A DNA stretch of 22,424 nt from an uncultured Ignavibacteriales bacterium. Lineage in GTDB: Bacteria; Zixibacteria; MSB-5A5; GN15; JAAZOE01. Each line of letters starts with the position of its first letter. Within the stretch, counting starts at the first letter, position 1. The notes below the pieces were generated by a model. That model was not told where the DNA came from. It did no database searches and saw only the letters and a list, made by a program, of their open reading frames with translations. Position numbers and translations under genes: made by a program. The stretch lies in NCBI GenBank assembly GCA_964611355.1, contig CAZSYD010000006.1, positions 62,001 through 84,424 of the forward strand, in the 5' to 3' direction. Positions 2,948 to 22,423 of this stretch are shown here, piece after piece.

Positions 2948-3028
2948 TATAAACAAACTCAATATACATCTCGTACCGCCACTATAATCTAACCTGCGGT
3001 AAATAGCGACTGCATTAGGAGGTACACT

Positions 3029-4876: not shown

Positions 4877-4992
4877 TGTGGGGAAATAAGGAGATCGAAT
4901 TTCAGCACCGGCGAAAAACCGGCCTTTCTGTATTGGTTTCCAAATCCTATCGCCCGGCTAAAATTAAAATCAGAAAAGGCCGAAATATAGTA

Positions 4993-5020
4993 TTGACGAC
5001 AGAAGCAAATTGTGTATTTT
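4993..5020 (+). promoter_or_regulatory. Possible sigma70 promoter for the M14 gene
   Basis: TTGACG-N16-TATTTT about 90 nt upstream of ATG 5112. SD-like AAGGTGAG at 5101-5108. Confidence 0.35.
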
Positions 5021-5111
5021 ATGATTGGAGCGGGTTAGTTGTCGAAAAAGAAAAATACCGGCCGCCCCGAAACCAACCGTCATACCAGCGCTTATCGTTC
5101 AAGGTGAGTAA

Positions 5112-7988
5112 ATGAAAAAACTGGCCATCCTTCTTGGTATCTTGATCATTATTCTCACAACTAACCTGCTGTCAGCAAATTCCGAGACTTATTTCAAGTT
5201 TCAGATTAAGTCTCGAAATGAACTGGAAAAGCTCACAAAAATCGTCTCAATAGATAACGTGGACAGCCTGACCGTCTATGCCTATGGCGCCGACGAACAA
5301 TTAACCGATCTCGAAAATCTCGGATATACATACACGGTTCTGCCTCACCCCGGGACACTGATAGTACCCCGAATGGCCGCCGGCAAAGAGGCGAAAATAT
5401 GGGATTACTACCCGACCTACGGTGAATATGTCGATTCGATGTATCAATTTGAGACCGACCATCCTGCCCTTTGCAAAACCTACGATATAGGTTTATCCGT
5501 TCAGGGCCGCTCGATTCTTTTTGTGAAGATATCGGATAACGTCGACCTGGAAGAGGATGAGCCGGAGGTAATGTATACCAGCACCATGCACGGTGACGAA
5601 ACCGTCGGATATATATCGATGCTGAGGCTCATTGACTATCTATTGACCAACTATGGCAGCGATTCGCTGGTTACCCGCCTTATCGATAGCTGTGAAATCT
5701 GGATTAATCCTCTGGCCAACCCGGATGGAACTTACAGGTCCGGCGATCATACCGTCGCCGGCGCAATTCGACTAAACGCCAATTACGTCGATTTAAATCG
5801 CAATTTCCCCGACCCGGAAGACGGACAACATCCGGATAATAAGCCCTGGCAGCCGGAAACGGTGGCGATGATGAATTTTGCCGGAGATCATTCATTTAAT
5901 ATTTCGGCTAATTTCCACAGCGGTGCTGAGGTTGTCAATTATCCGTGGGATACATGGGCTCGGCTGCATGTCGATAACGACTGGTTTATCGATATCAGCC
6001 GCGCCTACGCCGATTCGGCCCAGTATTTCAGCCCGGCCGGATATATGACCGATCTTAATAACGGTATCACCAACGGCTACGCCTGGTACACCATTACCGG
6101 CGGCCGTCAGGATTATATGAATTACTGGCACGGTTGCCGGGAAGTTACCATCGAACTTTCCCATACAAAGCTTTTACCGGAAGATTCGCTCGACGATCAC
6201 TGGAATTACAATAGAGCTTCTTTTCTAAATTATCTGGAAAATGGCCTTTACGGCATCCGGGGGGTTGTCACCGACGCGATAACGGGCGACCCTGTATTTG
6301 CCGCTGTAACCGTCGATGGTCACGACAGCGACCTCGACAGCTCCCGTGTCTTCACCGATCCCGACGTGGGCGACCATCACCGAATGATTCTGGCCGGTAC
6401 CTATGACCTGACCTTTACCGCCGCCGGTCATTATCCGAAGACGGTAACATCCATAGTTGTTGTCGATGAAACGTCCACGAGAGTTGACGTAACCCTCGAT
6501 CCTCTTCCGGAAGAACCGAATTTGCAGTTTGCTTCCCATGATGCCGGCATGGTTGACCCGGGAGACAATGTCTCCATGCTGATTACCCTTGAAAATGAGG
6601 GCGCCGGCGACGCCGTCAATGTTTCCGCCACGCTTGAGACAGACGACCCATATATAAACATCACGCAAAATTACTCGGCTTATCCCGATATCGTCAAGCT
6701 GGGAGGTATGGAAACATCGCTAAGCAACTACGAATTTACTATTTTGCCCACCTGTCCTTTTAGTCATCTGACCGAATTCAGCCTGGTTATTTCCGCGGAT
6801 GGCGGCTATGTTGACACCGTCGAATTTTCTATTGCCGTCGGCCTGTTCGTGGAGGATTTCGAAAGCGGCGATTTCGCCGGTCTTCCCTGGGAAATGGGCG
6901 GAACCGCCGAATGGACAATCACTTCATTCAATCCCTATGAAGGCTCCTTCAGCGCCAAATCCGGCGCCATTGACCATAATCAGTATTCGTGGATCACGGT
7001 CGATCTTGAAGTCGCTCAGCCGGGCACGCTCTCGTTTTATTACCGGGTATCCTCTGAGATTGACGATTATCTGAGTTTCCATATCGACGGCGTCGAAAAA
7101 GACACCTGGTCGGGAGAAGTCGCCTGGAGTTCCGCCAGCTATCCTGTTGAGGCCGGTTCGCGCACTTTTACCTGGGCATATATCAAGGATCAATCCATGT
7201 CCGGCGGCAGCGATTGCGCCTGGATTGATCTGATCGTCTTTCCCCTGCTGACCTCATCGGTTTCAATCAGCACTATATCACTTCCCGACTGGACGGCCGG
7301 ACATCCGTACTCCCGGGAACTGGAAGCCGTGAACGGTATCGGTGAATTGAACTGGTCGGATAAAAACGGCGAATTAGGCGGAACCGGCCTGACTCTGTCG
7401 AATGAGGGTATTCTATCCGGAATCCCAACCGCCCCGGGTCCTATATCGTTTACCGCTGCGGTAACTGACCACGGGGGCGGCCTCGACGAAAAACCGTTCA
7501 ACTTTACAATAAATCCGACCCTAACGATAACCACAGCTTCCCTGCCGGACGGCGGCGTCGGTTCGATGTATCAGCAACAGCTTGAAGCGACCGGCGGTAC
7601 GGGAACAAGAACATGGAACGATAAAAACGGCGACCTTGCCGGGACCGACTTTGCGCTCTCACAAGACGGCGTTCTCTCGGGAATGCCAACAGTATCAGGC
7701 GTTATAGGCTTCACTGCTCAGGTTCAGGATTTCATAGGCAGCGCCGATGAGGCCTATCTCAGTTTCGAAATCGCTGACCTGCCTTATATCTGCGGGGACG
7801 CCAATGGCGATGAAATGGTCAATATCGGGGATGCCGTCTTTATCTGCTGCTATGTCTTCAGGGATGGCCCGGCCCCAGATCCGCTCGAATCCGGAGACGC
7901 GAATTGCGACGACTCGGTAAATATCGGCGACGCCGTGTACATAGTGAACTACGTTTTCAAAGACGGCCCGGCACCCTGCTGCCCATAG
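5112..7988 (+). CDS. Secreted M14 (subfamily B, CPD/CPE/CPG70-like) zinc carboxypeptidase with transthyretin-like, Ig-like, jelly-roll and 2x He_PIG-like domains and C-terminal dockerin
   Basis: Signal peptide MKKLAILLGILIIILTTNLLSA. Zn ligands HGDE (5589) and NFHSG (5916). Motifs NPDG, DLNRNFPD, QPET, VNYPWD, GITNGYAWY, GGRQD, catalytic TIELS (Glu 6153). Regulatory-like domain beginning GIRGVVTD. Dockerin at 7791-7985. Confidence 0.92.
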   Translation: MKKLAILLGILIIILTTNLLSANSETYFKFQIKSRNELEKLTKIVSIDNVDSLTVYAYGADEQLTDLENLGYTYTVLPHPGTLIVPRMAAGKEAKIWDYYPTYGEYVDSMYQFETDHPALCKTYDIGLSVQGRSILFVKISDNVDLEEDEPEVMYTSTMHGDETVGYISMLRLIDYLLTNYGSDSLVTRLIDSCEIWINPLANPDGTYRSGDHTVAGAIRLNANYVDLNRNFPDPEDGQHPDNKPWQPETVAMMNFAGDHSFNISANFHSGAEVVNYPWDTWARLHVDNDWFIDISRAYADSAQYFSPAGYMTDLNNGITNGYAWYTITGGRQDYMNYWHGCREVTIELSHTKLLPEDSLDDHWNYNRASFLNYLENGLYGIRGVVTDAITGDPVFAAVTVDGHDSDLDSSRVFTDPDVGDHHRMILAGTYDLTFTAAGHYPKTVTSIVVVDETSTRVDVTLDPLPEEPNLQFASHDAGMVDPGDNVSMLITLENEGAGDAVNVSATLETDDPYINITQNYSAYPDIVKLGGMETSLSNYEFTILPTCPFSHLTEFSLVISADGGYVDTVEFSIAVGLFVEDFESGDFAGLPWEMGGTAEWTITSFNPYEGSFSAKSGAIDHNQYSWITVDLEVAQPGTLSFYYRVSSEIDDYLSFHIDGVEKDTWSGEVAWSSASYPVEAGSRTFTWAYIKDQSMSGGSDCAWIDLIVFPLLTSSVSISTISLPDWTAGHPYSRELEAVNGIGELNWSDKNGELGGTGLTLSNEGILSGIPTAPGPISFTAAVTDHGGGLDEKPFNFTINPTLTITTASLPDGGVGSMYQQQLEATGGTGTRTWNDKNGDLAGTDFALSQDGVLSGMPTVSGVIGFTAQVQDFIGSADEAYLSFEIADLPYICGDANGDEMVNIGDAVFICCYVFRDGPAPDPLESGDANCDDSVNIGDAVYIVNYVFKDGPAPCCP

Positions 7989-8227
7989 AGTACAATTTAT
8001 CGGACAGATATATGCAAACAAGGCGACAATTAAATTGTAAATAATATCGGTGTATTCGATTTCAATATCTCCTAACGTTTAACCAACTTGAGTAATATAA
8101 TTAATTATCCAATATCATGTAACATTTGCTGTTACCGAATGCATCAATTTATAATAATATTACTGCTTTGGAACTTAGAGTCTTATAAGCAAGACTAAAG
8201 CAGTCTACGTTATGGTTAAATATTTGC

Positions 8228-8255
8228 TTTACATTTTCCGATAATTCGTTATAAT
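8228..8255 (+). promoter_or_regulatory. Putative sigma70 promoter for the Kgp-like peptidase gene
   Basis: TTTACA (8228-8233)-N16-TATAAT (8250-8255) within a strongly AT-rich intergenic region. Confidence 0.55.
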
Positions 8256-8384
8256 GGAATAGAATAATAATCCCCACCAGGCTTACTTTTATATACCAGC
8301 CTGGCCAATGGATCTTTGGGTTTGAAAAACAGGAATATGAAATCCATGGAATCTTACGGTAAGGATAAGACTGGGAAAAATCGC

Positions 8385-11300
8385 ATGGCGACATTCAGGT
8401 ACACTGTATCGATTGTCTTGCTATTATTAACCTTTGGCATAACCGCCGGTTTGGCGTCCGATAACCTTGAAGTTAAAACGGTGCGACTCTCCGACTCGCC
8501 GACAAATGTAAATGTTTTTGACAGAAGCGATGCCGGTCTCAGGATACGAATCGAGATCGGTTCGCTTGACTTTATTCCGGTGGCAACCAAGACTGGCGAC
8601 TTTATCCTGACAACAACCAAGGGACTGACAAGATCGCACCGGATCGGCGAACCGAACGTGCCGATTGCCAACCGCCTGCTTTCTATCCCCTATGGCAGCG
8701 AGTTGACGGTGGAGGTGGAAGATTATACGGTCGAAGAAATATCGCTGGCCGACTACGGCCTGACCTCTCCCCTTATACCGGTTCAGCCCTCTCTGAGCAA
8801 ATCGCAGTCGGCGGAAGAGGTTCCCTTTGAATTCAACGACGCCATATATAAAGAAGACCGTTATTATTCCCTTCCGCTGGGTGCTTCCAAAATCATCGGC
8901 GTTATGCGTTCGCTCCGTCTCGGCATGGTAACGGTGGCGCCGGTGCAGTACAACCCTATTAAAAATAGTCTTCGCATTTACAAGGAGATAACGGTTCGGA
9001 TCAGGTTTGAAAATGCCGATTGGCAGGAGACCTATTCTAAATGGTCGGAGAGCTACTCGCCGTTTTTCGAATCGGTTTACGGCCGCATCTCAAATTATCA
9101 AAGCATTGCCTCAACTCAGGATGACCTTACGCAATACCCGGTCAAGTATGTCATTGTTGCCGACCGGATGTTCGAAACGCAGTTGCAACCCTTTATCGAG
9201 TGGAAAACCAAAAAAGGGTTCACGGTTGTCACGGCCTACACCGATGAAATCGGCTCAACCAGCCTAGCCATAAAGAACTACCTGCAAAATCTTTATAATT
9301 CCGGAACTCCGGAAGATCCCGCGCCGTCTTTTGTTCTGCTGGTAGGCGACGACCAGCAGATACCGGCCTTTTATTTCGGAGGTCATAAGACCGATCTTTA
9401 CTTTTGCGAGTTCACCGGCGATACCCTGCCGGAGATATATTACGGCCGCTTCTCTGCGTTGAATACGTCACAGCTCCAGCCGCAGATAGATAAAACGCTC
9501 GAATATGAAAAATATGAAATGCCTGATCCCGATTATCTGGGCGAGGTGACGATGGTCTCCGGAGTCGATATTTATCATGCTTCGACCTACGGCAATGGTC
9601 AGATCAACTACGGCACCAGTCTTTATTTCAATGCGGCGCATGGGATATATCCGCATGTCTGGCTGTATCCCGAATCCGGTGAGCCCGGCGTAACCGACTC
9701 CATAATTCAGATAATAAATGACGGCATCGGATTTACCAATTATACCGCTCATTGCAACCACAACGGATGGGGCAACCCCGCCTTCAATACTTCCCATATT
9801 AACAACGACCTCACTAATATCCACAAATACCTGCTCGGAATAGGCAACTGCTGCGAATCGAACACCTTTGGCGATAATTACGGGGAGAATCCCTGTTTCG
9901 GTGAAGTCTGGCTGCAGGCGGAAAACAAGGGCGGCATAGGTTACATCGGCGGAACCGACGGTACTTACTGGGATGAAGACTACTGGTGGGGAGTCGGCTA
10001 TGGTCCCATCGTCGGCACCGGCCCGACTTACGAACAGACCGGCCTTGGCGCCTATGACGGCGTTTTCCATGACCACGATGAGCCGGTTAATCAACATTAC
10101 GTGGCCAACGCGGCGATTATATTCTGCGGCAACCTGGCCGTCACCGAGTCGGGCAGCGACCATACGGAATATTACTGGGAAATTTACACCTTGATGGGTG
10201 ACCCGGCGGTCATGACTTATATGGGCATCCCTTCCGAAAACAATGTTTCATATCCCGACATAATCATTGTTATGGACTCGCTGGCCGTGATTTCCGCCAA
10301 TCCGGGATCGTATGTCGGCCTGTCTATGAATGGAGAACTTCATGGTCAGGCGTATATAGGGCCATCCGGAACCGTTGAGATGAAATTCACGCCTTTTATC
10401 GAAGCAGGCGATGCCGATATCGTTATCACTGCCCAAAACAGGATACCCCATATATCTACCATTGCGGTAACTCCGCCGACATATCCTTTCCTCGTTTATG
10501 ACGACAACCAGGTGGATGATATCGCAGGCGGGAACGGCAACGGCGTGGTCGATCCCGGCGAAAATATCGTTCTTGGAATGCAGATTAAAAACATCGGGGC
10601 CGGTGACGCTATGGACGTCAATGCGACACTGTCTGCCACAGATACGTATATAACGATCATCGATAGTATTGAGTTTTTTGGAAATATACCGGGCGAAGAC
10701 GGCACCGTTAATATCGCCGACGCCTTTACTTTTGACGTTGCCGTTAATATCCCTGATCTCCATGAAATATCGTTTACGCTAACCATGACCGACGTCAAAG
10801 ACAGCGTCTGGTCGGATGATTTCAGTATAACGGCTCACGCTCCGGTTCTGGAATATCTGTCCCTTGAAATAAATGACGCCGCCGGAAACGCCGACGGTTA
10901 TCTCGATCCGGGCGAGACGGCCGAATTGGTATTTACCCTCCGGAATAACGGCACCGGCCAGGCGGATAACCTGACCGCCGTTCTCGGCGAAAACGATCCA
11001 TACATCACGGTAGATGATGGAAACGGCTGGTTCGGCTCAATCCTTCCCGACGGCGGGCTGGCTGATAATTCCACCGACCTTTTTATTGTTTCGGCCGACC
11101 TTTCCTGCCCGCTTGGAAATAAGGTATCTTTCAATCTTGATATTTCAGGCGATAATGGCTTTTCGACCGGTCTGAATGCCGATTTGGAAATCGGCAGACG
11201 AGTTGACTTCCATTACGACGATTTCTCGTTCGACCAGGGTTGGGAAGGCTTGAGCGGCCCGGGCGAATGGACTATAGACACCGCAATGGGAGGTATCGGC

Positions 11301-12587
11301 AACGACGGCGTTGGCGGACCCGATCCGGCCGAGGATCACAGCCCCTCAACCGATAATAAAGTTCTTGGAAATGACCTTGCCGGTGGATTGGGCGGCGACT
11401 ATAGCAGCGGCCTGAGCACTGCCTACTGGGTTACCTCGCCGATTATCGACTGTTCCCATTTCAATGGCGTTATGCTGAATTTCTACCGCTGGCTGGGAGT
11501 TCAGAGTAATAATATAGATCATGCCAGACTGCAGGCTTATGACGGAAGCGACTGGATAATAATCTTTGAAAACGGCGTGGAGACATTGGACGAAACCGCC
11601 TGGAGTCTGCAGGAATATGACATGTCGGCTATAGCCGACAGCAACTCCGATTTTCGCCTTCGCTTTGGATTGGGACCGACCAACGATTATTCGAATTACT
11701 GTGGCTGGAACATAGATGACTTGATTCTCAAGGGATATGGCCGGCAAAAGTCCGGGCAGATTTCGTTTGAGTTCTTACCCCTGATCGACAGTCTCGTTTC
11801 CGGAGAAATCGTCGATGACACGCTGAGGATACATAACCTCAGCACTGAAGATACTCTTTTGATTCAATTCGACCCGCCGGTTGAACCCTGGCTTAGTTGC
11901 TCCGGCGAGCAGCTTTACATCGCGCCTCTCGAAAGTTATGATATGGTAGTAACGATTAACGCAACCGATATGGATCCGGGTGATAATTTCGGCTTTTTGA
12001 CCTATACGTCAAACGATTACCGGCACAAATCGGGCGGCGTCGAGGTATTGCTCCATATTTACTCGCCGCAGATTAACATTCCCGCGGAATCGGTGGTCAA
12101 GTCGCTTGAAGAAAACGGGCAGGCCGACCGATTTATAGAGATAAACAATCTCGGTTCCGGCCTTCTGGAGTTTGAGGCTGTTGCGGAAATGTTTGAGGGC
12201 CAGCAGGCGAACTGGTTATCAGTGCTGCCGGGCAGCGGGACAATCGAACCCGGCCAGTCAGATTCCCTGACGGCAGGCTTCGACGCCGCCACGCTGGAGC
12301 TTGGCCAATATACAGGCCGGATTACGGTTACCAGTAATGATCCCGTCACGCCATCGTGGGTTGTTCCGATAACGTTGAAAGTAATAGTCTGCGGCGATGC
12401 TAATGGTGATGAAAACGTCAATACCGCCGACGCGGTTTACCTCACGAACTATATTTTCCATAATGGTCCAGCGCCGGATCCGATTGAAGCCGGCGACACC
12501 AACGGTGACGGATCGGTCAATTTGGCTGACGCCGTTTATATCATCAACTACGTTTTCAACGAAGGACCGGCCCCGCTTTGTCCGTAA
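8385..12587 (+). CDS. Secreted Lys-gingipain (Kgp)-like C25 cysteine peptidase: propeptide, catalytic domain, C25_C Ig, two CARDB/NEW3-like domains, jelly-roll domain, two BACON-like domains, dockerin
   Basis: Start moved from the TTG at 8316 to the in-frame ATG at 8385, which gives a normal signal peptide (MATFRYTVSIVLLLLTFGITAGLA). Propeptide GEPNVP, P.QPSLSKS, VAPVQYNP. Catalytic domain FIEWKTKKGF, FVLLVGD, PEIYYGRFSA, KTLEYEKY, NYTAHC (His 9750), IGNCCE (Cys 9852), YWDEDYWWGVG, YYWEIYTLMGDP. Dockerin at 12390-12584. Confidence 0.92.
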   Translation: MATFRYTVSIVLLLLTFGITAGLASDNLEVKTVRLSDSPTNVNVFDRSDAGLRIRIEIGSLDFIPVATKTGDFILTTTKGLTRSHRIGEPNVPIANRLLSIPYGSELTVEVEDYTVEEISLADYGLTSPLIPVQPSLSKSQSAEEVPFEFNDAIYKEDRYYSLPLGASKIIGVMRSLRLGMVTVAPVQYNPIKNSLRIYKEITVRIRFENADWQETYSKWSESYSPFFESVYGRISNYQSIASTQDDLTQYPVKYVIVADRMFETQLQPFIEWKTKKGFTVVTAYTDEIGSTSLAIKNYLQNLYNSGTPEDPAPSFVLLVGDDQQIPAFYFGGHKTDLYFCEFTGDTLPEIYYGRFSALNTSQLQPQIDKTLEYEKYEMPDPDYLGEVTMVSGVDIYHASTYGNGQINYGTSLYFNAAHGIYPHVWLYPESGEPGVTDSIIQIINDGIGFTNYTAHCNHNGWGNPAFNTSHINNDLTNIHKYLLGIGNCCESNTFGDNYGENPCFGEVWLQAENKGGIGYIGGTDGTYWDEDYWWGVGYGPIVGTGPTYEQTGLGAYDGVFHDHDEPVNQHYVANAAIIFCGNLAVTESGSDHTEYYWEIYTLMGDPAVMTYMGIPSENNVSYPDIIIVMDSLAVISANPGSYVGLSMNGELHGQAYIGPSGTVEMKFTPFIEAGDADIVITAQNRIPHISTIAVTPPTYPFLVYDDNQVDDIAGGNGNGVVDPGENIVLGMQIKNIGAGDAMDVNATLSATDTYITIIDSIEFFGNIPGEDGTVNIADAFTFDVAVNIPDLHEISFTLTMTDVKDSVWSDDFSITAHAPVLEYLSLEINDAAGNADGYLDPGETAELVFTLRNNGTGQADNLTAVLGENDPYITVDDGNGWFGSILPDGGLADNSTDLFIVSADLSCPLGNKVSFNLDISGDNGFSTGLNADLEIGRRVDFHYDDFSFDQGWEGLSGPGEWTIDTAMGGIGNDGVGGPDPAEDHSPSTDNKVLGNDLAGGLGGDYSSGLSTAYWVTSPIIDCSHFNGVMLNFYRWLGVQSNNIDHARLQAYDGSDWIIIFENGVETLDETAWSLQEYDMSAIADSNSDFRLRFGLGPTNDYSNYCGWNIDDLILKGYGRQKSGQISFEFLPLIDSLVSGEIVDDTLRIHNLSTEDTLLIQFDPPVEPWLSCSGEQLYIAPLESYDMVVTINATDMDPGDNFGFLTYTSNDYRHKSGGVEVLLHIYSPQINIPAESVVKSLEENGQADRFIEINNLGSGLLEFEAVAEMFEGQQANWLSVLPGSGTIEPGQSDSLTAGFDAATLELGQYTGRITVTSNDPVTPSWVVPITLKVIVCGDANGDENVNTADAVYLTNYIFHNGPAPDPIEAGDTNGDGSVNLADAVYIINYVFNEGPAPLCP

Positions 12588-12699
12588 CGGCACAACTGAA
12601 GAAGATTGTCGCCTTGAGACAATATATCAGTCGACAGGGGAAAAGTACTGTAGTCATATAGTTATACTGACCCGTTCGCGTTCCAATAGAGGCAGATAA

Positions 12700-15234
12700 A
12701 TGAGGAAAGCAAGACTACTGCTTAACGTCTCGATTGTCCTGATAGTGGCGTGTATCTTCCGGGTGTCCGCGATTGGCGCCGAAGATTCAATACCAAAGGC
12801 CGAGAAACCGCTTTATATAACCAGGTCAATCTCCCCTTCCGCGCAAGCCGGGATATTAATCAGGTCCGAAAAAGGCGAATCAGGGTTCGAGAAACATGCA
12901 AAGAATTCCTTTTCGGCCGGCAGCCCTCATCGTATAGATAATCCTGAGGCACAAGCGTACTCAGCCCCGCCCAACGATAACTGTGCCGATGTTATCCCCG
13001 GCACATTGCCGATGGTTGTTACCGGCGATAACTCCTCAGCCACCAGTGACTGCGATCTGTTTCTCGACGGCGCAGAGGTTTGGGAAGCTTTTACCATCGA
13101 CGAAAAAATGGATGTAACCGTTGCCTATTGCGGCACCAGTCCGGCCTTCGAAGTGGTTTACACAATTCTGATTGAGGGCTGCCCCTGCGAAAAGCAGATC
13201 ATCGCTCACGTCGGTGATTGGGAAGAATGCGGCGACGGCAATATGACTCTTTATTTCTACGGCCTGAATCCGGGCACGTATTATATCCCGATTCTGGCAT
13301 CCCATCCTGACTTCTCAGATTATTATTTCACCGGGCCGTATGCAATCAGCATTACCGGCCAGCCGTGGCAGGAACGTTACTGCGAGGCCGACGTCGCTAC
13401 CTGCGACGAATATATCAGCCGTGTTACCGTGGCTGAAATCGATAATGCATCCGGATGTACCGGATACGGCGACTACACCGACAAGGTAACCCTTATGGCC
13501 TGTAACGCCGGTTACCCTGTCACAATAGAAATAACCGGCGGCTACGCAGCCGACTATGGCGCCGTTTGGGTTGACTGGAATCAGGATCAGGATTTTGTGG
13601 ACGCCGGCGAAGCGATACCGCTCGACATCTGCTCCGGTATCGGTCCGTACACCGGCATCATTACCATCCCCGAAAACGCCGCCGAGGGCGAAACCCGAAT
13701 GAGAATTCGCCTGAACTATGCTTCCCCGCCTGAACCATGCGGCGTAACCTCATACGGTGAAGTCGAAGATTATACCGTAAGCGTCGGCGGCGACCCATCA
13801 TATTTGACTATTGATCCCGATATTGTCGATCTCGGCTGGGTTATTCCCGGTTTCACCGGAGAAGAAAAACTGGTCTTCGGAGCCACCGGACAAAATTCCG
13901 TCTATTTCTCGATTGGTATTGTGTATGGCGGCAAAGAAAGCGTCGGCGGCGGCTGGAGTGAACCGGCTCTTCGCGTAAGTCCCTTCGACAATAATGGGCA
14001 TGTTCCGGTCGAAGGCAAATCGAAAAGCCGGCTTCTGTCTGAGGGTTTCGAAGACGGCATCATTCCCCCGGCGGACTGGACAACGATCGTAAATAACAAT
14101 TACACCTGGGGAATTGCAGCCGACGATCCTTACGAAGGCAATTTCTACGCCGTCTGTAAATATGACGAAACCCAAACGAGCATGCAAAATGAATGGCTTA
14201 TCAGTCCGGCTCTTGATTTTAGCGGCGAAGAATACCTGCTCGATTTCTGGTGGAACGGCAGCTATTATCATTCCGTTGAAAGAGAAAGATGCACTCTTTC
14301 GGTCTGGATTTCTTTGGACGGCGGAAACTCCTGGAATATGAAATTGTGGGACAACCTGCAATTCGGGCTTTTTGAAGACTGGCAGTGGAATAATACAGTC
14401 ATTGATCTGTCCTCGTTTGCGGATGAAAGTAACCTTAAGATCGCTTTTGTCTACACGGGCGATGACGGCGCCGCTTTTGCCATAGACGCCGTAGGCGTCA
14501 GCCCTGTTCCTGTCCCCTGGCTGCGCGTCGAACCATGGCTGGGCAGGGTGCCGCCTTATGGCAATCTGCCGGTAACCGTAACCGGATATACAAACGACCT
14601 CGAACTCGGTTCATATAATGCCGAGTTGATTATTACCCATACCGGCGGTTCGGCCAAGGGAGAAACCAGGCTCCCGGTATCGATGTCCATCGGCGTGGCC
14701 GAATGGGTAACGATAATGCCCGAACCGATGTATGCTCTTTTCGCTTATGAAAGCGAGCCTATACCCGGTTGCGCATACATCCATTCCTCGGCCCTGCCCG
14801 AAGGTTATCTTACAACGGATATAAATACATCATCAGTAACGATCAATACGACTCTCGGTCCGACGGGATCGGAATTTATCGGCGATGTTCTGGCGTTTGA
14901 CATCGATGCCCGCGGTTTTGTAGCTACCTATTCGCTTCTGTGGGATACTCTCGAGGTGGCCTACACCGTCTCAGGTGAATTTACCGACGGCGTGGCGTTT
15001 GCGCTTGATTTCACGGTCGATTTCATCGGCTACACAGCCGGCGACGCCAACCTGGACGGCAAAGCAAACCTCTCTGATGTCGTTTTTATTTCCGCTTATA
15101 TATTTCTGGGAGGGTCAGCGCCCGGGGTTTTGGAGACTGCTGACGCCAACTGTGACGGCCAGGTGGATATCTGCGACATGGTCTATTTAACCAACTTCAT
15201 CTTTCACAATGGCCCGCTTCCATGCCACCAGTAG
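12700..15234 (+). CDS. Secreted non-catalytic modular protein: PPNDNC-type Cys-rich domain, GEVED domain, cleaved-adhesin/choice-of-anchor-J-like jelly roll, BACON-like Ig, C-terminal dockerin
   Basis: Signal peptide; GAGG SD at 12689-12692. GEVED signature EYISRVT...[15 protein letters not shown]...TRMRIR...GEVEDY (13756-13773). EGFEDG..P.DW...[10 protein letters not shown]...IDAV jelly roll. Dockerin at 15037-15231. No catalytic motif recognised. Confidence 0.85.
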
Positions 15235-15257
15235 CGATTAGAAACAAGAATTCAATC

Positions 15258-15286
15258 AAAACCGGTCGCAACAGGTCGGTTTTTTT
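15258..15286 (+). terminator. Rho-independent terminator after the dockerin gene cluster (possibly bidirectional)
   Basis: AAAACCGGTC-gcaaca-GGTCGGTTTTTTT: stem with two G-U pairs and a T7 tract, lying between convergent genes. Confidence 0.75.
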
Positions 15287-15307
15287 GCGCATAAATCCAT
15301 TAAGTCG

Positions 15308-15802
15308 TTACCGTCCCTTTTCGAGGTAAAAGCCAAGGTATTTTCTTCCTTTTTCCGTCAAATCATAATAAGTATGATTACGATGTTTGATCCATTTCCC
15401 TTTAGCTATGCCTTTACGGTATCGAATCATCTTCGGAGCCACGCGTTGAAGAAGGCCCAAACCGCGAAGCTTATCATGTCTGTCAAAGACCGTTTGCCTG
15501 TCGATATGCAAAATCACGGCCACCTCCAATGAATAATCGACGCCAAGCTGCCGGTGATGATCGAGGATCCGGAAATCGACCTCGTCCAGTTTCCGATAAT
15601 CGTCATCAGGGCAAAACTCCTCGCCCGCCAGAATATCATCCCATTCGAGAATAATCAGGCGCTTGGGATCAACCTTGGCAAGGTTGCCGCAATCGGTCTT
15701 GTGGACTTTTATAAAATTGTCGTGACTGTAATAGCCGGTAATCGGATCGCCCGGTTTCGGCTTGCAGCAGTCGGCCGCAATATAATCATGTTTCAATCGC
15801 AT
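15308..15802 (-). CDS. RelA/SpoT-type zinc-finger (ZFD/CC) domain fused to a DUF2250-like winged helix-turn-helix
   Basis: N-half ADCCKPKPGDPITGY...IKVHKTDC.NL...PKRLIILEW matches the RelA CCxPxPGDxIxG...VHxxDC...PERxxxxxW motif. C-half ILDHH..GVDY...L..LGLLQR...HTYYDLTEKG matches DUF2250 as I recall it. The start is either ATG 15802 (used here) or ATG 15850. Confidence 0.8.
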   Translation of the reverse strand: MRLKHDYIAADCCKPKPGDPITGYYSHDNFIKVHKTDCGNLAKVDPKRLIILEWDDILAGEEFCPDDDYRKLDEVDFRILDHHRQLGVDYSLEVAVILHIDRQTVFDRHDKLRGLGLLQRVAPKMIRYRKGIAKGKWIKHRNHTYYDLTEKGRKYLGFYLEKGR

Positions 15803-15883
15803 GATTTGAACATGTCGAATTGGATTTCTACAGGATAAAAAAGCCGCCATTAAATCTTAAATCGCCGCTAATTACCAAATCGA

Positions 15884-17296
15884 CTATATGTTGTAATACA
15901 TTTCAAATTCAAACGGCGTCGGCCGAATCCTTATTTCAACAACCTCTTTACGCTTGAGTTCAATCCAGTTCTCCAGTAAATCCTCGGTAAAGACGCCGGC
16001 TTCCAGAAGATATTTATAGTCCTTTTCCAGTGCGTTGAGAGCTTTATTCAGCGACGTCGGCAATTTATGGATTCTGACCAGTTCCTCAGGAGACATCCGG
16101 TCAACGTTTTTGTCCAGCGGCAGACCGGGATCGATTTTTTTCCTGATGCCGTCAATGCCGGCCATCAGCATGGCGGCGTACGCCAGATATGGATTCATGG
16201 TGCCGTCAGGCGGACGGAACTCGAAACGCATCATTTTGGGGTCAAGTTGATAGCCGGGGATGCGGATACAGGCGGTGCGGTTGCCGACCGAATAGGTGCC
16301 AGCTACCGGCGCCTCGAAGCCGGGCACCAGTCGTTTGAATGAATTCGTCGACGGATTGGAGAAAGTCAGAATCGAATCGACGTGCTCTAAAAGCCCGCCT
16401 ATATAATACAGGCCGATTTTGGAAAACTTATGCGGGCCTTTTCTGTCATAGAAAAGAGAACCCTTGCTATCGGCCAGGTATTGATGTACATGCAAACCCG
16501 AGCCCGGTTCGTTGAAAAGCGGTTTGGGCATAAACGTGGCCGACTTTTTCATTCGGAAACACTGGTTTTTAACGAAGTATTTAACCAGCATAGTCTGATC
16601 GGCCATTTTGGAAAGCGGCGCAAATTTAATCTCGATCTCATGCTGACCTCCGCCGCCGACTTCGTGGTGATGATACTTCAGTTCTATTCCGATTTCGGCC
16701 AGCATCGATGATATTGCCGAGCGCAAATTGTAGGTACGATCCATTGGCGGCGCAGCATGATACCCCTTTTTATACGGAATTTTATAGCCTAAGCATTCTT
16801 CGTCATCGGTGGCGTTCTGTTCCGCTTCGATTGAATCGATATAATAAAAGGCGCTTGCCGGGCCCTGGAAAAAATTTACCTTGTCAAAAACGTAGAACTC
16901 GAATTCCGGCCCGATAATCGCTTTGGCGCCTTTTACAATCTTGTGCAGGTATTTTTCGGCGTCGGCGCTGACCCGGCGCGGATTGCGCGAATAGGGAGTT
17001 ACTTTTTGCCCAACTTCAAAAATGTCGCAGATGAATGAAATGGTGGGACGCTCAAAAAATGGATCGATACAAGCAGTATCGAGATCGGGGATGGCAATCA
17101 TATCTCCCCGCTCGATTGATAAAAAACCCGGCAGCGCGGAGCCGTCAAATCCAATTCCATTAGTCAACAGAGCCTGATTTAGAGCTGATATCGGCAGGGT
17201 AATATGATGCCAGCTACCGAGCAGGTCTGAAAACTTTACGTCGATATACTCAACTTTCTTTTCCCGGGCATACTTCTTTATCTTATCCAGGCCCAT
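15884..17296 (-). CDS. glnA: Type I glutamine synthetase (GSI-beta-like length and insertion)
   Basis: GFDGS, GPEFEFY, HHHEV, QHEI, ATFMPKP, GSGLHVHQ, NSFKRLVPGFEAP, NRTACIRIP, RFEFRPPD, NPYLAYAAMLMAGIDGI, RPTPFEF. SD GGAAGGAGAAGG upstream on the minus strand. Confidence 0.93.
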   Translation of the reverse strand: MGLDKIKKYAREKKVEYIDVKFSDLLGSWHHITLPISALNQALLTNGIGFDGSALPGFLSIERGDMIAIPDLDTACIDPFFERPTISFICDIFEVGQKVTPYSRNPRRVSADAEKYLHKIVKGAKAIIGPEFEFYVFDKVNFFQGPASAFYYIDSIEAEQNATDDEECLGYKIPYKKGYHAAPPMDRTYNLRSAISSMLAEIGIELKYHHHEVGGGGQHEIEIKFAPLSKMADQTMLVKYFVKNQCFRMKKSATFMPKPLFNEPGSGLHVHQYLADSKGSLFYDRKGPHKFSKIGLYYIGGLLEHVDSILTFSNPSTNSFKRLVPGFEAPVAGTYSVGNRTACIRIPGYQLDPKMMRFEFRPPDGTMNPYLAYAAMLMAGIDGIRKKIDPGLPLDKNVDRMSPEELVRIHKLPTSLNKALNALEKDYKYLLEAGVFTEDLLENWIELKRKEVVEIRIRPTPFEFEMYYNI

Positions 17297-17520
17297 TACC
17301 TTCTCCTTCCAAAAAATGAGAAAATCTTGATTCGATTATAAATTAATACAATTTCCATAGAAGGCAAGCGTATATAATCAGGCCCGTTAAGAATCTCCTT
17401 TTCTTTACCAACCCTGATATCAACGATTACCGTTTAAATTCTGTTGCATAATTCGGTGACGGCGGCCATTATACAGACAAACGTGAGAACCGGAGGATTG
17501 TCATAACGGATATTGCCATC

Positions 17521-18336
17521 ATGACCGAAGCCGATATCGGCTTTGCCGTATCAATGACCGACTATGAGCGCTGGGCGTATCTGGAAGATGACTTCAAACG
17601 ACTGATTAAGCTCAGCCCGGAAGGATGTTTCGTGGCGTGGGAGAATGATAAACGGATCGGCATGATTACTTCGGTTACGTATGCCGACTATGCCTTCCTT
17701 GGGTGCTTAATCGTCAGGAAGGAATATCGAGGCCGAAAAATCGGCGAAGCCCTGATACACCGGGCCATAGATCATCTACACGGCAGGAGCGTCCGGTGTA
17801 TTGAACTCGACGGGGTCTTCTCTGCGGCGTCTCTCTACCGCCGACTCGGTTTTAAGGATAAATACCTTTCGCTTCGGTTCGCCAGGTACCCTTCGGGGCG
17901 GGCGGAGCAGAAAAAGGAACCAGCCGGGAGTTGCTCACCTGAAGAATTGACATCTTTTGATTTTGCCCAAACCGGAATTAATCGAAAAGAACTGCTTAAT
18001 TGTTATTTCCCGGAATTTGCAAATTCATTATATGTTACCGGAAATAACCGACTGACCGGCTATGCCTTTGTTACACCCCGAAAGGGAGGATTCCTTAAGA
18101 TTGGCCCGATGGTCACAAAAAATAAAAAATCAGCCGGACAGATCTTATCCGATATCTTGAAAGATTACGGCGGAGGTACTATTGTTATCGGCGTGCCGGC
18201 GGTGAACACGGCTGCAACAACGATAATGCTGCGCATGGGTTTTATTCACGGCCCGCCCGCGCTCAGGATGTACCTCGGCGAAAAGCGCGATTACGAAACA
18301 TCAATCTACGGCATCGCCGCCGCCGATAAAGGCTAA
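17521..18336 (+). CDS. Two-domain GNAT N-acetyltransferase (YitH-like C-terminal domain)
   Basis: Acetyl-CoA motif IVRKEYRGRKIGEALI and LYRRLGF. Second domain with FD....G..R..LL, GY, IGP, VPAVN.AA, MGF, RMYLG. The true start may lie a few codons upstream. Confidence 0.88.
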   Translation: MTEADIGFAVSMTDYERWAYLEDDFKRLIKLSPEGCFVAWENDKRIGMITSVTYADYAFLGCLIVRKEYRGRKIGEALIHRAIDHLHGRSVRCIELDGVFSAASLYRRLGFKDKYLSLRFARYPSGRAEQKKEPAGSCSPEELTSFDFAQTGINRKELLNCYFPEFANSLYVTGNNRLTGYAFVTPRKGGFLKIGPMVTKNKKSAGQILSDILKDYGGGTIVIGVPAVNTAATTIMLRMGFIHGPPALRMYLGEKRDYETSIYGIAAADKG

Positions 18337-18430: not shown

Positions 18431-21400
18431 TTACTTCATCAGAAGCATTTTCCGGGTGGCTGTGAACCCGCCGGCTTTGGCCTTATAGAGGTAGATTCCC
18501 GAGGCCACGTTCCTGCCGCCGGCATCGGTGGCATCCCAATTTACTTCGACCGGGCCGGCCTCGGAATATCCCGTGTATTCCCTGATTATCTGGCCGGCGA
18601 TATTATAGATTGATATGGTCCATTCCGAAGCGACCGGCAGGTTCAGACTGATCGTCGTAACCGGATTAAACGGGTTGGGGTAGTTCTGACTCAGTTGGAA
18701 TCTGCCCGGTATATTCCTGGTCGAGACCGGCAGGACAGTGCCCTGATAGTCAGACACCTCGGCATTGACCAGGCTGGCCGTACCTTCGGCCGGGATCGTC
18801 ACCAGGATATCTTTGCCGGAAGCAATGGCATTGGAGCCGATATTGTAGATTAAAACCCGCAACTCGCTGCCGTCGAAGTTATGGGCCAATTCCATACCCT
18901 CGGCGCCGTTACCGGGTAGCGGATCACCGACCGTGCCTTCCACATGGAAGACCAGAAGCGCAGCACCGGCTCGGACATTGGTATTGTATTCAACCACTAA
19001 CCCGCCCGCAGATTCTATAGTAGTAATGTCGAATCGGCTGTCGGGAAACGGTTTGAGATAGGGTATGGCATCACCGGTGATTATACGGACCATATAAACC
19101 AGGTCAGCAACGGAAAGAGCAACGCCGTCGCCGTTAACCTCGGAAGCAGCGATTGAAGCTTCCACGTGGGAACCAAAAGCCTCCAAACCTTTAATAAAGT
19201 AATTGGTGTACATGACGGCGTCCGCGATCTCGTTCGACACCCCGTTCTGGTTGATGTCGCCCCGGTCGTCGATCGAATCCGCTGGGATAATGTCAATACC
19301 GCCGTTCCAGAATTCTATACAGCGGATAGGGACCACCTTGTAACCGGTTATACAGGAATCGGGGGCGCCGACAAACGGTATCCTGGCATCTTCCGGGAAT
19401 TGAACGTCGTCCTCCTCATCCCAGATCATATTGCCAAGATAATCAAGAATGGCCGAATCAAGATATAGATATTCGCCACTCACGTCAGAGATGCTGTTAT
19501 CGCTGCAGTCGCCCCAGAAAAAATAGACCGGGACGTACTGACCTTCAAAGGTACGGTCGCTTGTGACCAGGAATGTCATCCTGGCCAGTTCATGCGGATC
19601 GGTGTCAGGCGGGCCGAAGCAGGCCGGATGGTTCATGCCGTCAAACGTCTCGGCTATGGCGATGATCCGAACCAAGCCGGAAGGACAGGCGTCGCCACAA
19701 TTACCGACATCTCCGAAGCGATAAGTGAAGTACTCCCAGTCGCAATCCTCAAGCAACTGTCCTCTGGAAACTTCCGCCAGAGTCAGCGCCGAAGCGTCAT
19801 AGGCGATCAGGAAGTCGAAACCGCCCATACCGTTCATGCTGTTTTCCGTTGTAATGCTGACGCTTTCAAAATGACCCTGCAGGGTGCCGTGCGTCTTCTC
19901 GATCTTTATTGTCGGACATTGGGTGGTATGGATAATCTGGACGTTAACATTGGTAACACAGGTGTCGGCAGTGCCGCCTTTGGCCGAATTGCAATCGTCA
20001 ACGGCGATCAAATAAATCGTATTTACGCCCTCGACCGGCGTGAAGCAAACTTCGTTACCGTCGAGATAACCGTCCACGCCCTCAATATAGCAGTCGGCCA
20101 GGTTGCCGTCGGGGTCTTCGCAATAGAACCCGGACAGGCAAATCATACTGACCTGATCGTACAGGAAGATGGTCGTGTCGCCCTGGCAATGGGCTGACGG
20201 CGGTTGGTTATACGTAATGGTAATATTGACGGTTCCGCCACAGGTTGCGCCGCAATCGTCATGGCATTCAAACTCGGCGCTGTATACGCCTGTACCTGAA
20301 GTTGTAAACGTCCAGGTGCTGCCGTCAAAACTTCCCGGGCCGCTGACCTTGGTACAGCCGACCAGGTTATTGTCCACATCGGTCGCCGAAACCGGGAAGC
20401 TAAAGGTAGTATCATCGCAGACAAAATGGTTGGCATCATCCGGCAGGTTGCATACCGGCGAACTATTAAGGTCAATTGTTATATTGGTCTGGCAGACGTC
20501 GGTCTCGCCGCATTCGTCGGTACCCGTCAGGGTGATGGTGTTAATTCCTTCAACCGGAGTAAACGTCACCTGATCACCATTTAAGGTACCGTTGTCCACA
20601 TCACAGGAGGCCAAATTATTGTCAACATCGCTGCAACTAAAGCCTGAAATCGTTATCGGCGCAAGATTGCAGACAAAGAACGCCTGATCATCGGCGCAGG
20701 CAACCTGTGGCGGGCTGTTCAATACCACGGTAATCTGGGTCTGACAAACATCCGTTTCGTTACATTCGTCGGTCGCCGTTAAGGTAATGGTATTAAGTCC
20801 TTCTATCGGCGTAAAGGTCACTTCGTCGCCGGTCAGCGTACCGTTATCCACATTACACGAAACCATGTTGTCATCAGGATCGCTGCAACTGAAACCCTGA
20901 ATCGTAACGGGCGACAGGTCACAGACAAGCAACGTTTGATTTGTGGGACAGGAAGCCTGCGGCGGGCTGTTCAAAACAACGGTAATCTGAGTTTGGCAAA
21001 CGTCAGTCTCGTCGCATTCATCGGTCGCCGTCAAAGTAATTGTATTGAGGCCCTCAATCGGCGTAAAGGTAACTTGGTCGCCGGTTAAGGTACCGTTGTC
21101 AACCTCGCAGGAGGTCAAATTATTGTCAACATCGCTGCAACTGAAGCCCGAAATCGTTACGGGCGACAGGTCGCAAACAACTATTGTCTGATTTCCCGGA
21201 CAGGTGGCTTCAGGCGGGCTGTTCAATGCCACGGTAATTTGGGTCTGGCAGACATCCGTCTCGTTACATTCATCGGTTGCCGTGAGAGTAATCGTATTCA
21301 GACCTTCGACCGGCGTGAACGTGACCTCGTCACCAACCAGGGTGCCATTGTCGACCGTGCAGGAGGCCAGATTGTTGTCCGGGTCGCTGCAACTAAAGCC

Positions 21401-22423
21401 TGAAATCGTTATGGGCGACAGGTCGCAGACAAGCATCGTTTGATTTCCGGGGCAGGTTGCCACCGGCGGCTGGTTATCGTATTGAACCGTAACATTTGTC
21501 TGGCATTGGCCAATTTCCCCGCAGGCATCTGTCACCGTATAGGTAATCGTGTAAAGGCCGCCGTTGGTGGGCGTGAAGCAGACGTAACCGCCAGACAGCG
21601 TACCCAAGTCAACTGACTCATCCACGATATTGTTATCCGGGTCCGAAGCGCTGAACGGACCGACGCAGATTTCGCCGGGCGTACACGGGAAGGTGACCGT
21701 CGTATCTTCCGGACAGGATGCTACCGGCGGGCTGTTTGTTACGGTCACGTTAAACGTACAATCGGAGGTATTATTGGCCGCATCCGTCGCCGTACAGGTG
21801 ACAACCGTGGTCCCGCCGGAGAAAAACGTGCCTGATGGCGGGTTGCAGGATATCGTTACGCCGGGACAGTTATCCGTCGCCGTGGCGCTGAAGGTCACCG
21901 TCGCCCCGCAGGTACCCGCCTCGGTCGCCACCGTGATATCGCCTGGACATTGGGCTACCGGATTCTCGGTATCGTTAACGGTAACATTAAAAGTGCAAAT
22001 CCCCGTATTACTCGAAGCGTCAGTGGCGGTACATGTTACTACCGTCGTCCCTACCGGGAAAAACGTGCCTGACGGCGGATCGCAGGAAATCGTTACTCCT
22101 GGACAATTATCGGTAGCTGTGGCTGTAAATGTTACTACCGCCCCGCACTGACCGGCATCGTTGCCAACCGTAATATCGGCGGGACATTGAGCTACCGGAT
22201 CCTCAGTATCGTTAACAGTAATGTTAAAGGTACAGGTATTCGTACATTTATTACCGGAAGCGTCAGTGGCGGTACAGGTCACTATCGTCGTCCCCACAGG
22301 GAAGAATGAACCCGAAGCCGGATCGCAATCTATCGTCGCGCCCGGACAGTTATCGGTCGCCGTGGCAGCAAAGGTTACCACCGCTCCGCACTGACCGGGA
22401 TCGTTGCCAACTGTGATATCAGC
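18431..22423 (-). CDS. Large Cys-rich surface protein (5' truncated by window): HYR repeats, 84-aa cadherin/Ig-like repeats, cohesin-like domain, dockerin, Ig-like domain, FlgD-Ig/T9SS type-A-like C-terminal domain
   Basis: The frame stays open to the window edge (ADITVGNDPGQCGAV...), so GTG 22381 is not the start. HYR motif P...CP.DITV...ATATDNC...CDP.SG.FFPVGTT.VTCTATD...CTFNVTV. Cohesin-like GGFDFLIAYDASALT (about 19290-19910). Dockerin RGDINQNG...SEVNGDG (about 19070-19264). C-terminal FQLSQNYPNPFNP...IYNIAGQ...WD..D..G..VASGIYLYK...RKMLLMK (18434-18700). Confidence 0.9.
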   Translation of the reverse strand, partial: ADITVGNDPGQCGAVVTFAATATDNCPGATIDCDPASGSFFPVGTTIVTCTATDASGNKCTNTCTFNITVNDTEDPVAQCPADITVGNDAGQCGAVVTFTATATDNCPGVTISCDPPSGTFFPVGTTVVTCTATDASSNTGICTFNVTVNDTENPVAQCPGDITVATEAGTCGATVTFSATATDNCPGVTISCNPPSGTFFSGGTTVVTCTATDAANNTSDCTFNVTVTNSPPVASCPEDTTVTFPCTPGEICVGPFSASDPDNNIVDESVDLGTLSGGYVCFTPTNGGLYTITYTVTDACGEIGQCQTNVTVQYDNQPPVATCPGNQTMLVCDLSPITISGFSCSDPDNNLASCTVDNGTLVGDEVTFTPVEGLNTITLTATDECNETDVCQTQITVALNSPPEATCPGNQTIVVCDLSPVTISGFSCSDVDNNLTSCEVDNGTLTGDQVTFTPIEGLNTITLTATDECDETDVCQTQITVVLNSPPQASCPTNQTLLVCDLSPVTIQGFSCSDPDDNMVSCNVDNGTLTGDEVTFTPIEGLNTITLTATDECNETDVCQTQITVVLNSPPQVACADDQAFFVCNLAPITISGFSCSDVDNNLASCDVDNGTLNGDQVTFTPVEGINTITLTGTDECGETDVCQTNITIDLNSSPVCNLPDDANHFVCDDTTFSFPVSATDVDNNLVGCTKVSGPGSFDGSTWTFTTSGTGVYSAEFECHDDCGATCGGTVNITITYNQPPSAHCQGDTTIFLYDQVSMICLSGFYCEDPDGNLADCYIEGVDGYLDGNEVCFTPVEGVNTIYLIAVDDCNSAKGGTADTCVTNVNVQIIHTTQCPTIKIEKTHGTLQGHFESVSITTENSMNGMGGFDFLIAYDASALTLAEVSRGQLLEDCDWEYFTYRFGDVGNCGDACPSGLVRIIAIAETFDGMNHPACFGPPDTDPHELARMTFLVTSDRTFEGQYVPVYFFWGDCSDNSISDVSGEYLYLDSAILDYLGNMIWDEEDDVQFPEDARIPFVGAPDSCITGYKVVPIRCIEFWNGGIDIIPADSIDDRGDINQNGVSNEIADAVMYTNYFIKGLEAFGSHVEASIAASEVNGDGVALSVADLVYMVRIITGDAIPYLKPFPDSRFDITTIESAGGLVVEYNTNVRAGAALLVFHVEGTVGDPLPGNGAEGMELAHNFDGSELRVLIYNIGSNAIASGKDILVTIPAEGTASLVNAEVSDYQGTVLPVSTRNIPGRFQLSQNYPNPFNPVTTISLNLPVASEWTISIYNIAGQIIREYTGYSEAGPVEVNWDATDAGGRNVASGIYLYKAKAGGFTATRKMLLMK
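20468..21475 (-). repeat. Four tandem 252-bp (84-aa) intragenic repeats, flanked by three more divergent copies
   Basis: N[SQ]PP anchors recur at 20711, 20963, 21215 and 21467 (exact 252-bp period). Consensus NSPPxATCPxNQTxxVCDLSPxTISGFSCSDxDNNLxSCxVDNGTLxGDxVTFTPxEGLNTITLTATDECxETDVCQTQITV. Confidence 0.95.

Follow-up and report, generated by a model that had tools for sequence, protein, structure and literature searches.

The stretch of DNA analysed here (the window; 22,424 nucleotides (nt), positions 62,001 to 84,424 of contig CAZSYD010000006.1, assembly GCA_964611355.1) comes from an uncultured bacterium assigned to Zixibacteria. On its minus strand, it carries a small gene whose product joins the RIS, or zinc-finger, domain (ZFD) of RelA/SpoT homologues (RSH) to a DUF2250 winged helix-turn-helix (wHTH) domain, hereafter the RIS-DUF2250 gene. 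An initial annotation, made from the sequence alone, had proposed this fusion, and its two halves were recovered by the TIGR00691 profile, by matches in the PDB, by Pfam (52.3 bits) and by structural searches with Foldseek and VIA. The features at the locus are listed in Table 1.

Table 1. Features at and around the RIS-DUF2250 gene, in window positions. Amino acids (aa) are numbered on the 164-aa form; CDS, coding sequence; ORF, open reading frame.
Feature	Position	Strand	Description and basis
RIS-DUF2250 gene, longest ORF	15308..15850	minus	180 aa; ORF list
Probable true CDS	15308..15802	minus	164 aa: RIS/ZFD, acidic linker, DUF2250 wHTH; ORF list and homologue alignment from M17
N-terminal extension, probably untranslated	15803..15850	minus	16 codons; unmatched in 120 listed homologues; overlaps terminator-like hairpin
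RelA/SpoT RIS (ZFD) domain, residues 1-58	15629..15802	minus	Sequence matches, invariant ligands, fold, PF28438 label
Putative zinc ligand codons	C12/C13 15764-15769; H34 15701-15703; C38 15689-15691	minus	
Acidic linker, residues 59-72	15587..15628	minus	41-row alignment
DUF2250 wHTH, residues 73-155	15338..15586	minus	Pfam PF10007; MarR/PadR/ArsR-like fold, Z 10-12.8
Invariant wing motif WIKHRNHTYY, W137-Y146	15365..15394	minus	41/41 alignment rows
Inverted repeat centred on the ATG at 15802	15787..15814	none	12 nt, 10/12 complementary, 4-nt spacer; repeat search
Imperfect hairpin, weak terminator-like	15837..15869	minus	8 pairs, two G-G mismatches, then six U; RNA fold; between glnA stop and M17 start
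glnA, type I glutamine synthetase	15884..17296	minus	TIGR00653, 520.5 bits (cut-off 429); Pfam Gln-synt_C, Gln-synt_N
GNAT acetyltransferase, divergent from glnA	17521..18336	plus	Pfam Acetyltransf_1, Acetyltransf_18; beside glnA also in loci L019, L044 and L078
GEVED/dockerin protein gene, convergent with the RIS-DUF2250 gene	12700..15234	opposite to RIS-DUF2250	Pfam

The translation start was assessed against 120 listed homologues, whose lengths range from 161 to 212 aa, mostly 161-173, and whose best BLASTP alignments span 86-98% of the 180-aa query. Their starts correspond to M17 of the longest ORF or lie 3-4 codons earlier. Because the homologues begin at or near M17, and because the 16-codon extension overlaps a hairpin, the gene probably starts at position 15802 and encodes 164 aa; residue numbers below refer to this form unless the 180-aa numbering is stated. 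The distance to glnA is therefore 81 nt. Of the range of 33-81 nt given by the initial annotation, the upper end thus stands, while the lower end depends on the longest-ORF start, which is probably unused. The inverted repeat centred on the start codon was set aside, since we estimate that chance alone would produce about one of this kind across the region scanned. No comparable repeat ranked at the start codon in 80 related loci (the best 80 of 262 relatives, taken from species-level genomes).

The N-terminal domain is related to the RIS domain of RelA and SpoT

Sequence and predicted fold identify residues 1-58 as a RelA/SpoT RIS (zinc-finger) domain that carries four putative zinc ligands. 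Positions 549-605 of the NCBIfam profile TIGR00691 (spoT_relA) matched residues 18-72 in 180-aa numbering (E 8.2e-10), and phmmer searches against the PDB retrieved the ZFDs of Bacillus subtilis Rel (6htq_x 210-257, E 1.5e-5) and Escherichia coli RelA (5kps_A 615-665, E 5.9e-5). The PDB sequence matches consisted only of the zinc-finger regions of B. subtilis Rel, E. coli RelA, Mycobacterium smegmatis Rsh and SpoT, and with a family profile those to the Rel and RelA ZFDs improved to 3.5e-9 and 1.2e-6, respectively. The CC..H..C pattern lies exactly where the initial annotation had placed it (15641-15781, residues 24-70 in 180-aa numbering). Its residues C12, C13, H34 and C38 are invariant, both in the full-length alignment (41 of 41 rows) and in the N-domain alignment (40 of 40), and align with RelA C612, C613, H634 and C638; P15 is also invariant in the 41 rows. 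As had been claimed, no synthetase, hydrolase, TGS or ACT domain was reported in the 180-aa ORF by Pfam at E <= 1, DUF2250 being the only family found.

To model this domain, the first 62 residues were folded alone, from an alignment of the window copy with sequences from 39 of the 80 loci (pLDDT 90.3). The model contains strands at residues 7-9, 21-25, 31-35 and 50-52 and a helix at 39-43, after the last cysteine. When it was used as a Foldseek query, ranks 1 to 9 were all ZFDs of long RSHs (RelA, Rel, SpoT and Rsh; TMq 0.65-0.70, root-mean-square deviation (rmsd) 1.5-3.0 A), after which the E-value jumped from 0.012 to 1.8. An exhaustive VIA search likewise ranked three RSH chains at Z 6.5-6.7, with the next chain at Z 2.9.

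The domain thus shares its fold and ligand pattern with the RIS/ZFD/CC domain of long RSHs (approximately residues 585-660 in E. coli RelA; PF28438), and structural alignments put its identity to the solved chains of RelA, Rel, SpoT and Rsh at about 33-36%. The DC.N..(7).R segment past the last cysteine is kept and matches most of 21 aligned representatives of long RSHs in length and pattern. Against the ZFD of the genome's own Rel, identity is 35% (17/48), and the domain is therefore no recent copy of it. The architecture differs. In long RSHs, RIS is internal and accompanied by HD, SYNTH, TGS, helical and ACT domains, whereas in the RIS-DUF2250 protein it is N-terminal and all of these are missing. 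The domain order is nevertheless parallel, as RIS is followed by ACT/RRM in the former and by the wHTH in the latter. In the full-length AlphaFold2 model, the intervening linker has no DSSP element until a short helix at residues 67-71, and this block has a pLDDT of 87-89.

The C-terminal domain is a DUF2250 winged helix

The C-terminal 83 residues are, again from sequence and model, a DUF2250 winged helix with a MarR/PadR-like fold and a long, basic, invariant wing. Pfam DUF2250 (PF10007) covers residues 89-171 in 180-aa numbering, with 52.3 bits against a gathering cut-off of 24.4. The basic wing sequence quoted in the initial annotation is present in the ORF. The full-length model, built from the 41-row alignment (the window copy and 40 homologues drawn from two search lists), reached pLDDT 90.0 and pTM 0.62. 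Its C-terminal part (residues ~64-164) superposed on DNA-bound E. coli MarR (5h3r_A) with Z 12.8 and rmsd 1.3 A over 80 residues, followed by BpsR (6pco_A, Z 12.6), the wHTH of Rio2 kinase (12.3), RosR (11.8), ArsR/SmtB (11.0) and PadR entries (10.4-10.9).

The fold and a basic beta-hairpin wing are therefore shared with MarR, PadR and ArsR regulators, and the wHTH contains a Y-Y-.-L-T-.-.-G strand that we take to be typical of PadR-like wings. In contrast to MarR, the RIS-DUF2250 protein has neither the N- nor the C-terminal dimerisation helices, and its wing is unusually long compared with those of the three families, with about 23 residues between the strands in the model. At the profile level, no Pfam MarR or PadR family was found at E <= 1, and the NCBIfam PadR model PRK09416 scored only 12.6 bits (E 0.12) against a cut-off of 112.

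Within the wHTH, H83, D89, Y90, H109 and the segment W137-Y146 are invariant in the 41-row alignment. The KH.NHTYY core of the wing is common to the RIS-DUF2250 protein and to other DUF2250 architectures (PF10007; small wHTH proteins, described as 'conserved in archaea'), and the H83, D-Y-S and H109 positions are common to it and the single-domain DUF2250 proteins P0141 and P0142. The archaeal DUF2250 forms that we saw are single or tandem and lack RIS, whereas the RIS-DUF2250 protein is bacterial, comes from one phylum and has an N-terminal RIS. As a separate observation, the wHTH contains four invariant histidines (H83, H109, H140 and H143), which could be a candidate metal or ligand site; these four positions and the D-Y-S turn recur in P0141 and P0142 and not in the HPPK and PCRF fusions described below.

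The family is conserved within one phylum

A word-indexed search retrieved 274 proteins at E <= 1e-3. The 120 listed all carry precomputed PF28438 and PF10007 assignments, and the organisms named among them are Zixibacteria, GN15 or 'FCB group' records. In a protein atlas, the corresponding cluster has 260 members and the automatic name 'DUF2250/RelA/SpoT RIS domain-containing protein', with PF28438 (RelA_RIS, Pfam 38.1) on 98% of the cluster. The combination of RIS and DUF2250 has therefore already been annotated automatically. In the literature, we found no published function for the RIS-DUF2250 protein and no paper on a stand-alone RIS domain. Queries for RelA_RIS, PF28438, PF10007, IPR019254 and COG3432 gave nothing on the family, judged by the titles among the matches listed, and for DUF2250 they gave its appearance in a table of plasmid proteins. 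The family is conserved, unstudied and architecturally unusual.

An exhaustive search of representative sequences gave 389 matches at E <= 1e-3, of which only five reached E <= 1e-30. The full-length 50% clusters number two (P0121 and P0122), so the family is compact. Two further representatives are partial: P0137 (154 aa) has the RIS and the first wHTH helices followed by unrelated sequence, and in P0139 (180 aa) the two halves are interrupted; both are probably frameshifted or chimeric metagenome calls.

In the phylum of the source organism, 237 of 285 genomes had a match at E <= 1e-5. The two-domain architecture is not peculiar to the source genome and was found in about 161 of the 285 (E <= 1e-28), with four intermediate cases (counted from the table). 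The remaining 72 score between 1e-5 and 1e-9, a range to be read against the ZFD of the genome's own Rel, which by itself reaches 7e-9 in pairwise BLASTP. Strong matches occur in 11 of 20 families, with none in f3, f6-f8, f11-f13, f18 and f20; about 120 of the 285 genomes, whole families among them, lack the gene. Based on these searches, the family appears confined to one phylum (Zixibacteria, by record names), usually with one copy per genome.

An intact long RSH, which the initial annotation had expected elsewhere in the genome, is encoded by a separate 734-aa frame on contig C23 (797.9 bits to TIGR00691). An intact long Rel was likewise present in all six genomes with a RIS-DUF2250 protein that were checked, namely the source genome and five others. 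In these five, the identity of the RIS-DUF2250 protein to the window copy was 66, 63, 61, 56 and 51%, and that of Rel was 78, 63, 61, 61 and 59%, which suggests that both proteins are conserved to about the same degree.

DUF2250 and RIS in other architectures

In the representative library, DUF2250 also occurs alone, in tandem in archaea, fused to HPPK and fused to the N-terminal part of a release factor, and it looks like a general DNA-binding-type module. The HPPK case is P0148 (271 aa), in which the folate-pathway pyrophosphokinase domain is joined to DUF2250. The release-factor fusions are P0196, P0197, P0220 and P0230, three of which have Pfam PCRF above the cut-off. These PCRF-DUF2250 proteins belong to Desulfotomaculia, where 11 loci were collected (L084-L094, match at ~3001-3640). 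As in the RIS-DUF2250 protein, a piece of a ribosome-binding translation factor stands ahead of a DUF2250 wHTH, albeit with another head domain and in another phylum. The PCRF head is helical, and its coiled-coil composition could contribute to the PCRF score.

The searches also addressed where else RIS is found. Among 150 listed representative matches, the 67 short ones with a ZFD match were scanned. Fifty-eight contained only RSH-type domains (ACT, TGS, RelA_AH_RIS, HD_4 and RelA_SpoT) and look like RSH fragments, eight had no family at all, and one combined M20_dimer with RIS. A search for longer fused relatives yielded none (206 candidates, none scored), which is weak evidence. A word search with residues 1-62 alone returned two candidates, both members of the RIS-DUF2250 family, and is silent on other RIS architectures. 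Apart from this family, these searches brought up no recurrent setting of the RIS domain outside RSHs.

A possible ribosome-coupled regulator

We tentatively favour a reading in which the protein regulates by binding nucleic acid and uses its RIS head to dock on the ribosome. In the excerpts cited here, RIS/ZFD is the main ribosome anchor of RelA (PMC4974054, PMC5829649 and PMC6719525), and the single job that they and an excerpt of PMC7797070 ascribe to it is to hold RelA to the A-site finger and uS19. The same excerpt of PMC4974054 describes the helix after the last cysteine of E. coli RelA as docking in the A-site finger's minor groove. Because this RNA-docking helix segment is retained and RIS is RelA's main anchor, it is by analogy a serious possibility that the head docks as in RelA, where ribosomes whose A site is free are bound at intersubunit bridge B1a through the 23S A-site finger and uS19. 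The wHTH probably binds nucleic acid, most likely DNA, as other small wHTH regulators do.

On this reading, the protein would be a regulator of 164 aa that stands alone and combines two modules for binding nucleic acid or the ribosome, and its availability to DNA would depend on the state of the ribosome. Alternatively, it and Rel would be rivals for one ribosomal site. Coupling to the ribosome or to Rel, which the initial annotation had also suggested, is plausible by analogy. A broader and distinctly speculative extension is that the DUF2250 wHTH may be a common output module for heads taken from ribosome-binding translation factors, RIS in Zixibacteria and the release-factor N-domain in Desulfotomaculia. 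The Zixibacteria protein would then be the first stand-alone RIS protein, a ribosome-state sensor sitting on bridge B1a at an empty A site. From there, a change in translation would free it to bind DNA, or it would occupy the docking site of Rel and thereby set the threshold of the stringent response.

In every characterised RSH, RIS/ZFD is known solely as an anchor to the ribosome within an enzyme. By keeping the RIS head and swapping the enzyme for a winged helix, the family amounts to a natural dissection of this domain and may represent a ribosome-coupled regulator or a Rel antagonist of a new kind. Should the sensor proposal hold, it would provide a direct protein link from ribosome occupancy to gene regulation that bypasses (p)ppGpp. 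The A-site finger and uS19 are conserved, and the RIS-DUF2250 protein is small.

The same RIS fold and DC.N...R segment would also suit a purely ribosome-associated factor, with RIS at the A-site finger and uS19 and the wing bound to rRNA or tRNA in place of ACT/RRM, which would either block the A site in a hibernation-like manner or keep Rel away and so weaken the stringent response. Some winged helices bind RNA, and the Rio2 wHTH is among the fold matches. In an excerpt of PMC6719525, the over-produced C-terminal region of RelA binds ribosomes and impairs translation. The independent fusion of DUF2250 to a release-factor N-part in Desulfotomaculia and conservation at a housekeeping level also agree with such a factor. 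However, the nearest fold relatives and the weak Pfam relatives of the wHTH are all DNA binders, the gene has no translation-gene context, and its absence from about 120 phylum genomes means that it is not essential. We therefore consider a role restricted to the ribosome unlikely.

Gene neighbours, promoters and the case for a plain transcription factor

Neighbours were counted in the 77 loci where a simple gene call found the RIS-DUF2250 gene. The most frequent was a divergent DUF819 membrane protein upstream (38 of 77), followed by a DUF4953 Met-zincin downstream (27); a nitroreductase lay downstream in 15 loci, and a different nitroreductase lay directly upstream on the same strand in eight. 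In L049 the gene that follows is thioredoxin, and its cluster is also found downstream in L052 and L081. No gene partner was conserved across the 77 loci.

Of 81 upstream regions, 38 have an exact TATATT or TATAAT hexamer whose end lies 5-8 nt ahead of an in-frame start, as against none of the 81 at each of four shifted control anchors. Given the usual spacing between a -10 element and the transcription start, a box at this distance from the start codon points to a leaderless or near-leaderless mRNA, and the pattern suggests as much for most lineages of the family. The box is absent from the upstream region of the window's own gene. Several of the boxes continue as TATATTTG (e.g. regions L020:3950-4000 and L027:3950-4000), an extension that we take to resemble the Bacteroidota-type -7 motif.

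These neighbourhoods bear on another explanation, in which the protein acts as a conventional transcription factor, a wHTH dimer that has nothing to do with the ribosome. Its RIS zinc finger would then control DNA binding, having been recruited for a structural role, for dimerisation or for zinc/thiol redox sensing. Zinc sites of the Cys3His type are classical thiol switches, and the nitroreductase and thioredoxin neighbours lend the context a redox flavour, although they come from related genomes and are not independent observations. The fold of the wHTH is nearest to DNA-bound MarR, PadR and ArsR regulators, and in archaea DUF2250 takes the form of small wHTH proteins, single or in tandem, encoded in operons of various kinds. 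An older proposal that the ZFD mediates RelA oligomerisation, cited in an excerpt of PMC6719525, would fit a dimerisation module, whereas the ZFD mutations described there did not follow the prediction of the dimer model. Across 38 promoters and 80 loci, there is no conserved operator or autoregulatory repeat, nor is there a conserved target gene, and conservation at the level of Rel together with a ten-residue invariant wing would be unusual for a niche regulator. Taken on its own, a plain transcription factor is rather doubtful; it is nearly as likely as the ribosome-docking regulator that we favour. Were it correct, an RSH-derived zinc finger would have been recruited as a sensor or dimerisation module, a more modest result.

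Several results weigh against the ribosome-docking regulator. One conserved RSH surface is altered, since the T-R-G-R-G hairpin loop of long RSHs is replaced by S-H-D-N in the RIS-DUF2250 protein. None of the 77 loci revealed a ribosomal or translation gene as a conserved neighbour. With the 38 dereplicated promoters aligned on the TATATT box, no further column exceeded 0.75 bits, and inverted repeats around the start showed no excess over background (mean best score 2.93, against 2.5-3.6 at five control offsets). Tandem archaeal DUF2250 proteins, in six of 10 loci, adjoin NurA/HerA, an alpha/beta hydrolase, ferritin and an F420 dehydrogenase, none of them translational, and the PCRF-DUF2250 neighbourhoods (six of 11 loci) are equally varied and without a translation link; such contexts fit ordinary transcription factors better than ribosome factors. 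Finally, zinc, ribosome and DNA binding are all properties that we infer.

The association with glnA is restricted to one clade

The initial annotation had further proposed that the regulator is probably co-transcribed with glnA, which would tie the machinery of the stringent response to nitrogen assimilation. In the window, the gene does follow glnA on the same strand, 81 nt away, and the hairpin in the gap is imperfect, so that read-through from glnA is possible. Elsewhere, glnA was kept within the fetched upstream flank in 11 of the 80 related loci. The other 69 had no glnA there, although six of them have less than 450 nt upstream and are only partly informative. In a quick maximum-likelihood tree (78 rows, as three loci had no called gene), all glnA-linked rows fell into a single clade of 26 rows (SH-aLRT 95), which also holds other contexts.

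The statement that no terminator was seen was too strong, given the imperfect hairpin and U-run at 15837-15869. The consensus scan did not list this hairpin, but clean counterparts occupy the same place in L006, L011, L030 and L055. These are four of the eight loci with glnA directly upstream, and in each the gap contains a clean GC hairpin followed by a T-run; two more (L004 and L078) have a strong hairpin without a T-run, and two (L022 and L044) have none. A nitroreductase gene is inserted between glnA and the RIS-DUF2250 gene in L019, L023 and L074. In other lineages, the gene stands by itself, with its own promoter-like box beside the start codon, and in the window no Rfam family reached its gathering score.

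Because no more than 11 of 80 loci have glnA upstream, every one of them in a single clade, and terminators occupy the gap in four of eight, we reject the link. Conserved functional coupling is not supported, and a regulator tied to nitrogen assimilation in this way is very improbable, the model being largely refuted by its distribution. From these comparisons, the adjacency is a lineage-specific accident and not a functional operon, and recognising the glnA neighbourhood as incidental removes a misleading lead.

The upstream nitroreductase-family protein (265 aa) occurs in L005, L007, L012, L014, L018, L019, L023 and L074, separated from the RIS-DUF2250 gene by gaps of ~8-60 nt, and the copy in L012 has a hydrophobic N-terminus. 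This link is tighter than that of glnA, yet it is limited to the same clade.

Other features of the window

A consensus promoter scan of positions 15100-17700 found two promoter-like sites, against 4.5 expected. One of them, on the minus strand just upstream of the RIS-DUF2250 gene (15912..15883), matches at only 9 of 12 positions.

Much of the remaining window (3029-15234 and 18431-22381) is a run of genes for large secreted proteins. They include two Peptidase_C25 (gingipain-type) proteins, one of which has a propeptide and a dockerin, an M14 carboxypeptidase, a GEVED/MAM/dockerin protein and an HYR/Ig protein with a Por_Secre_tail, the sorting domain of type IX secretion. At the start of the window (108-2764, plus strand), the genes for the flavoprotein and iron-sulfur subunits of a succinate dehydrogenase or fumarate reductase overlap by one base.

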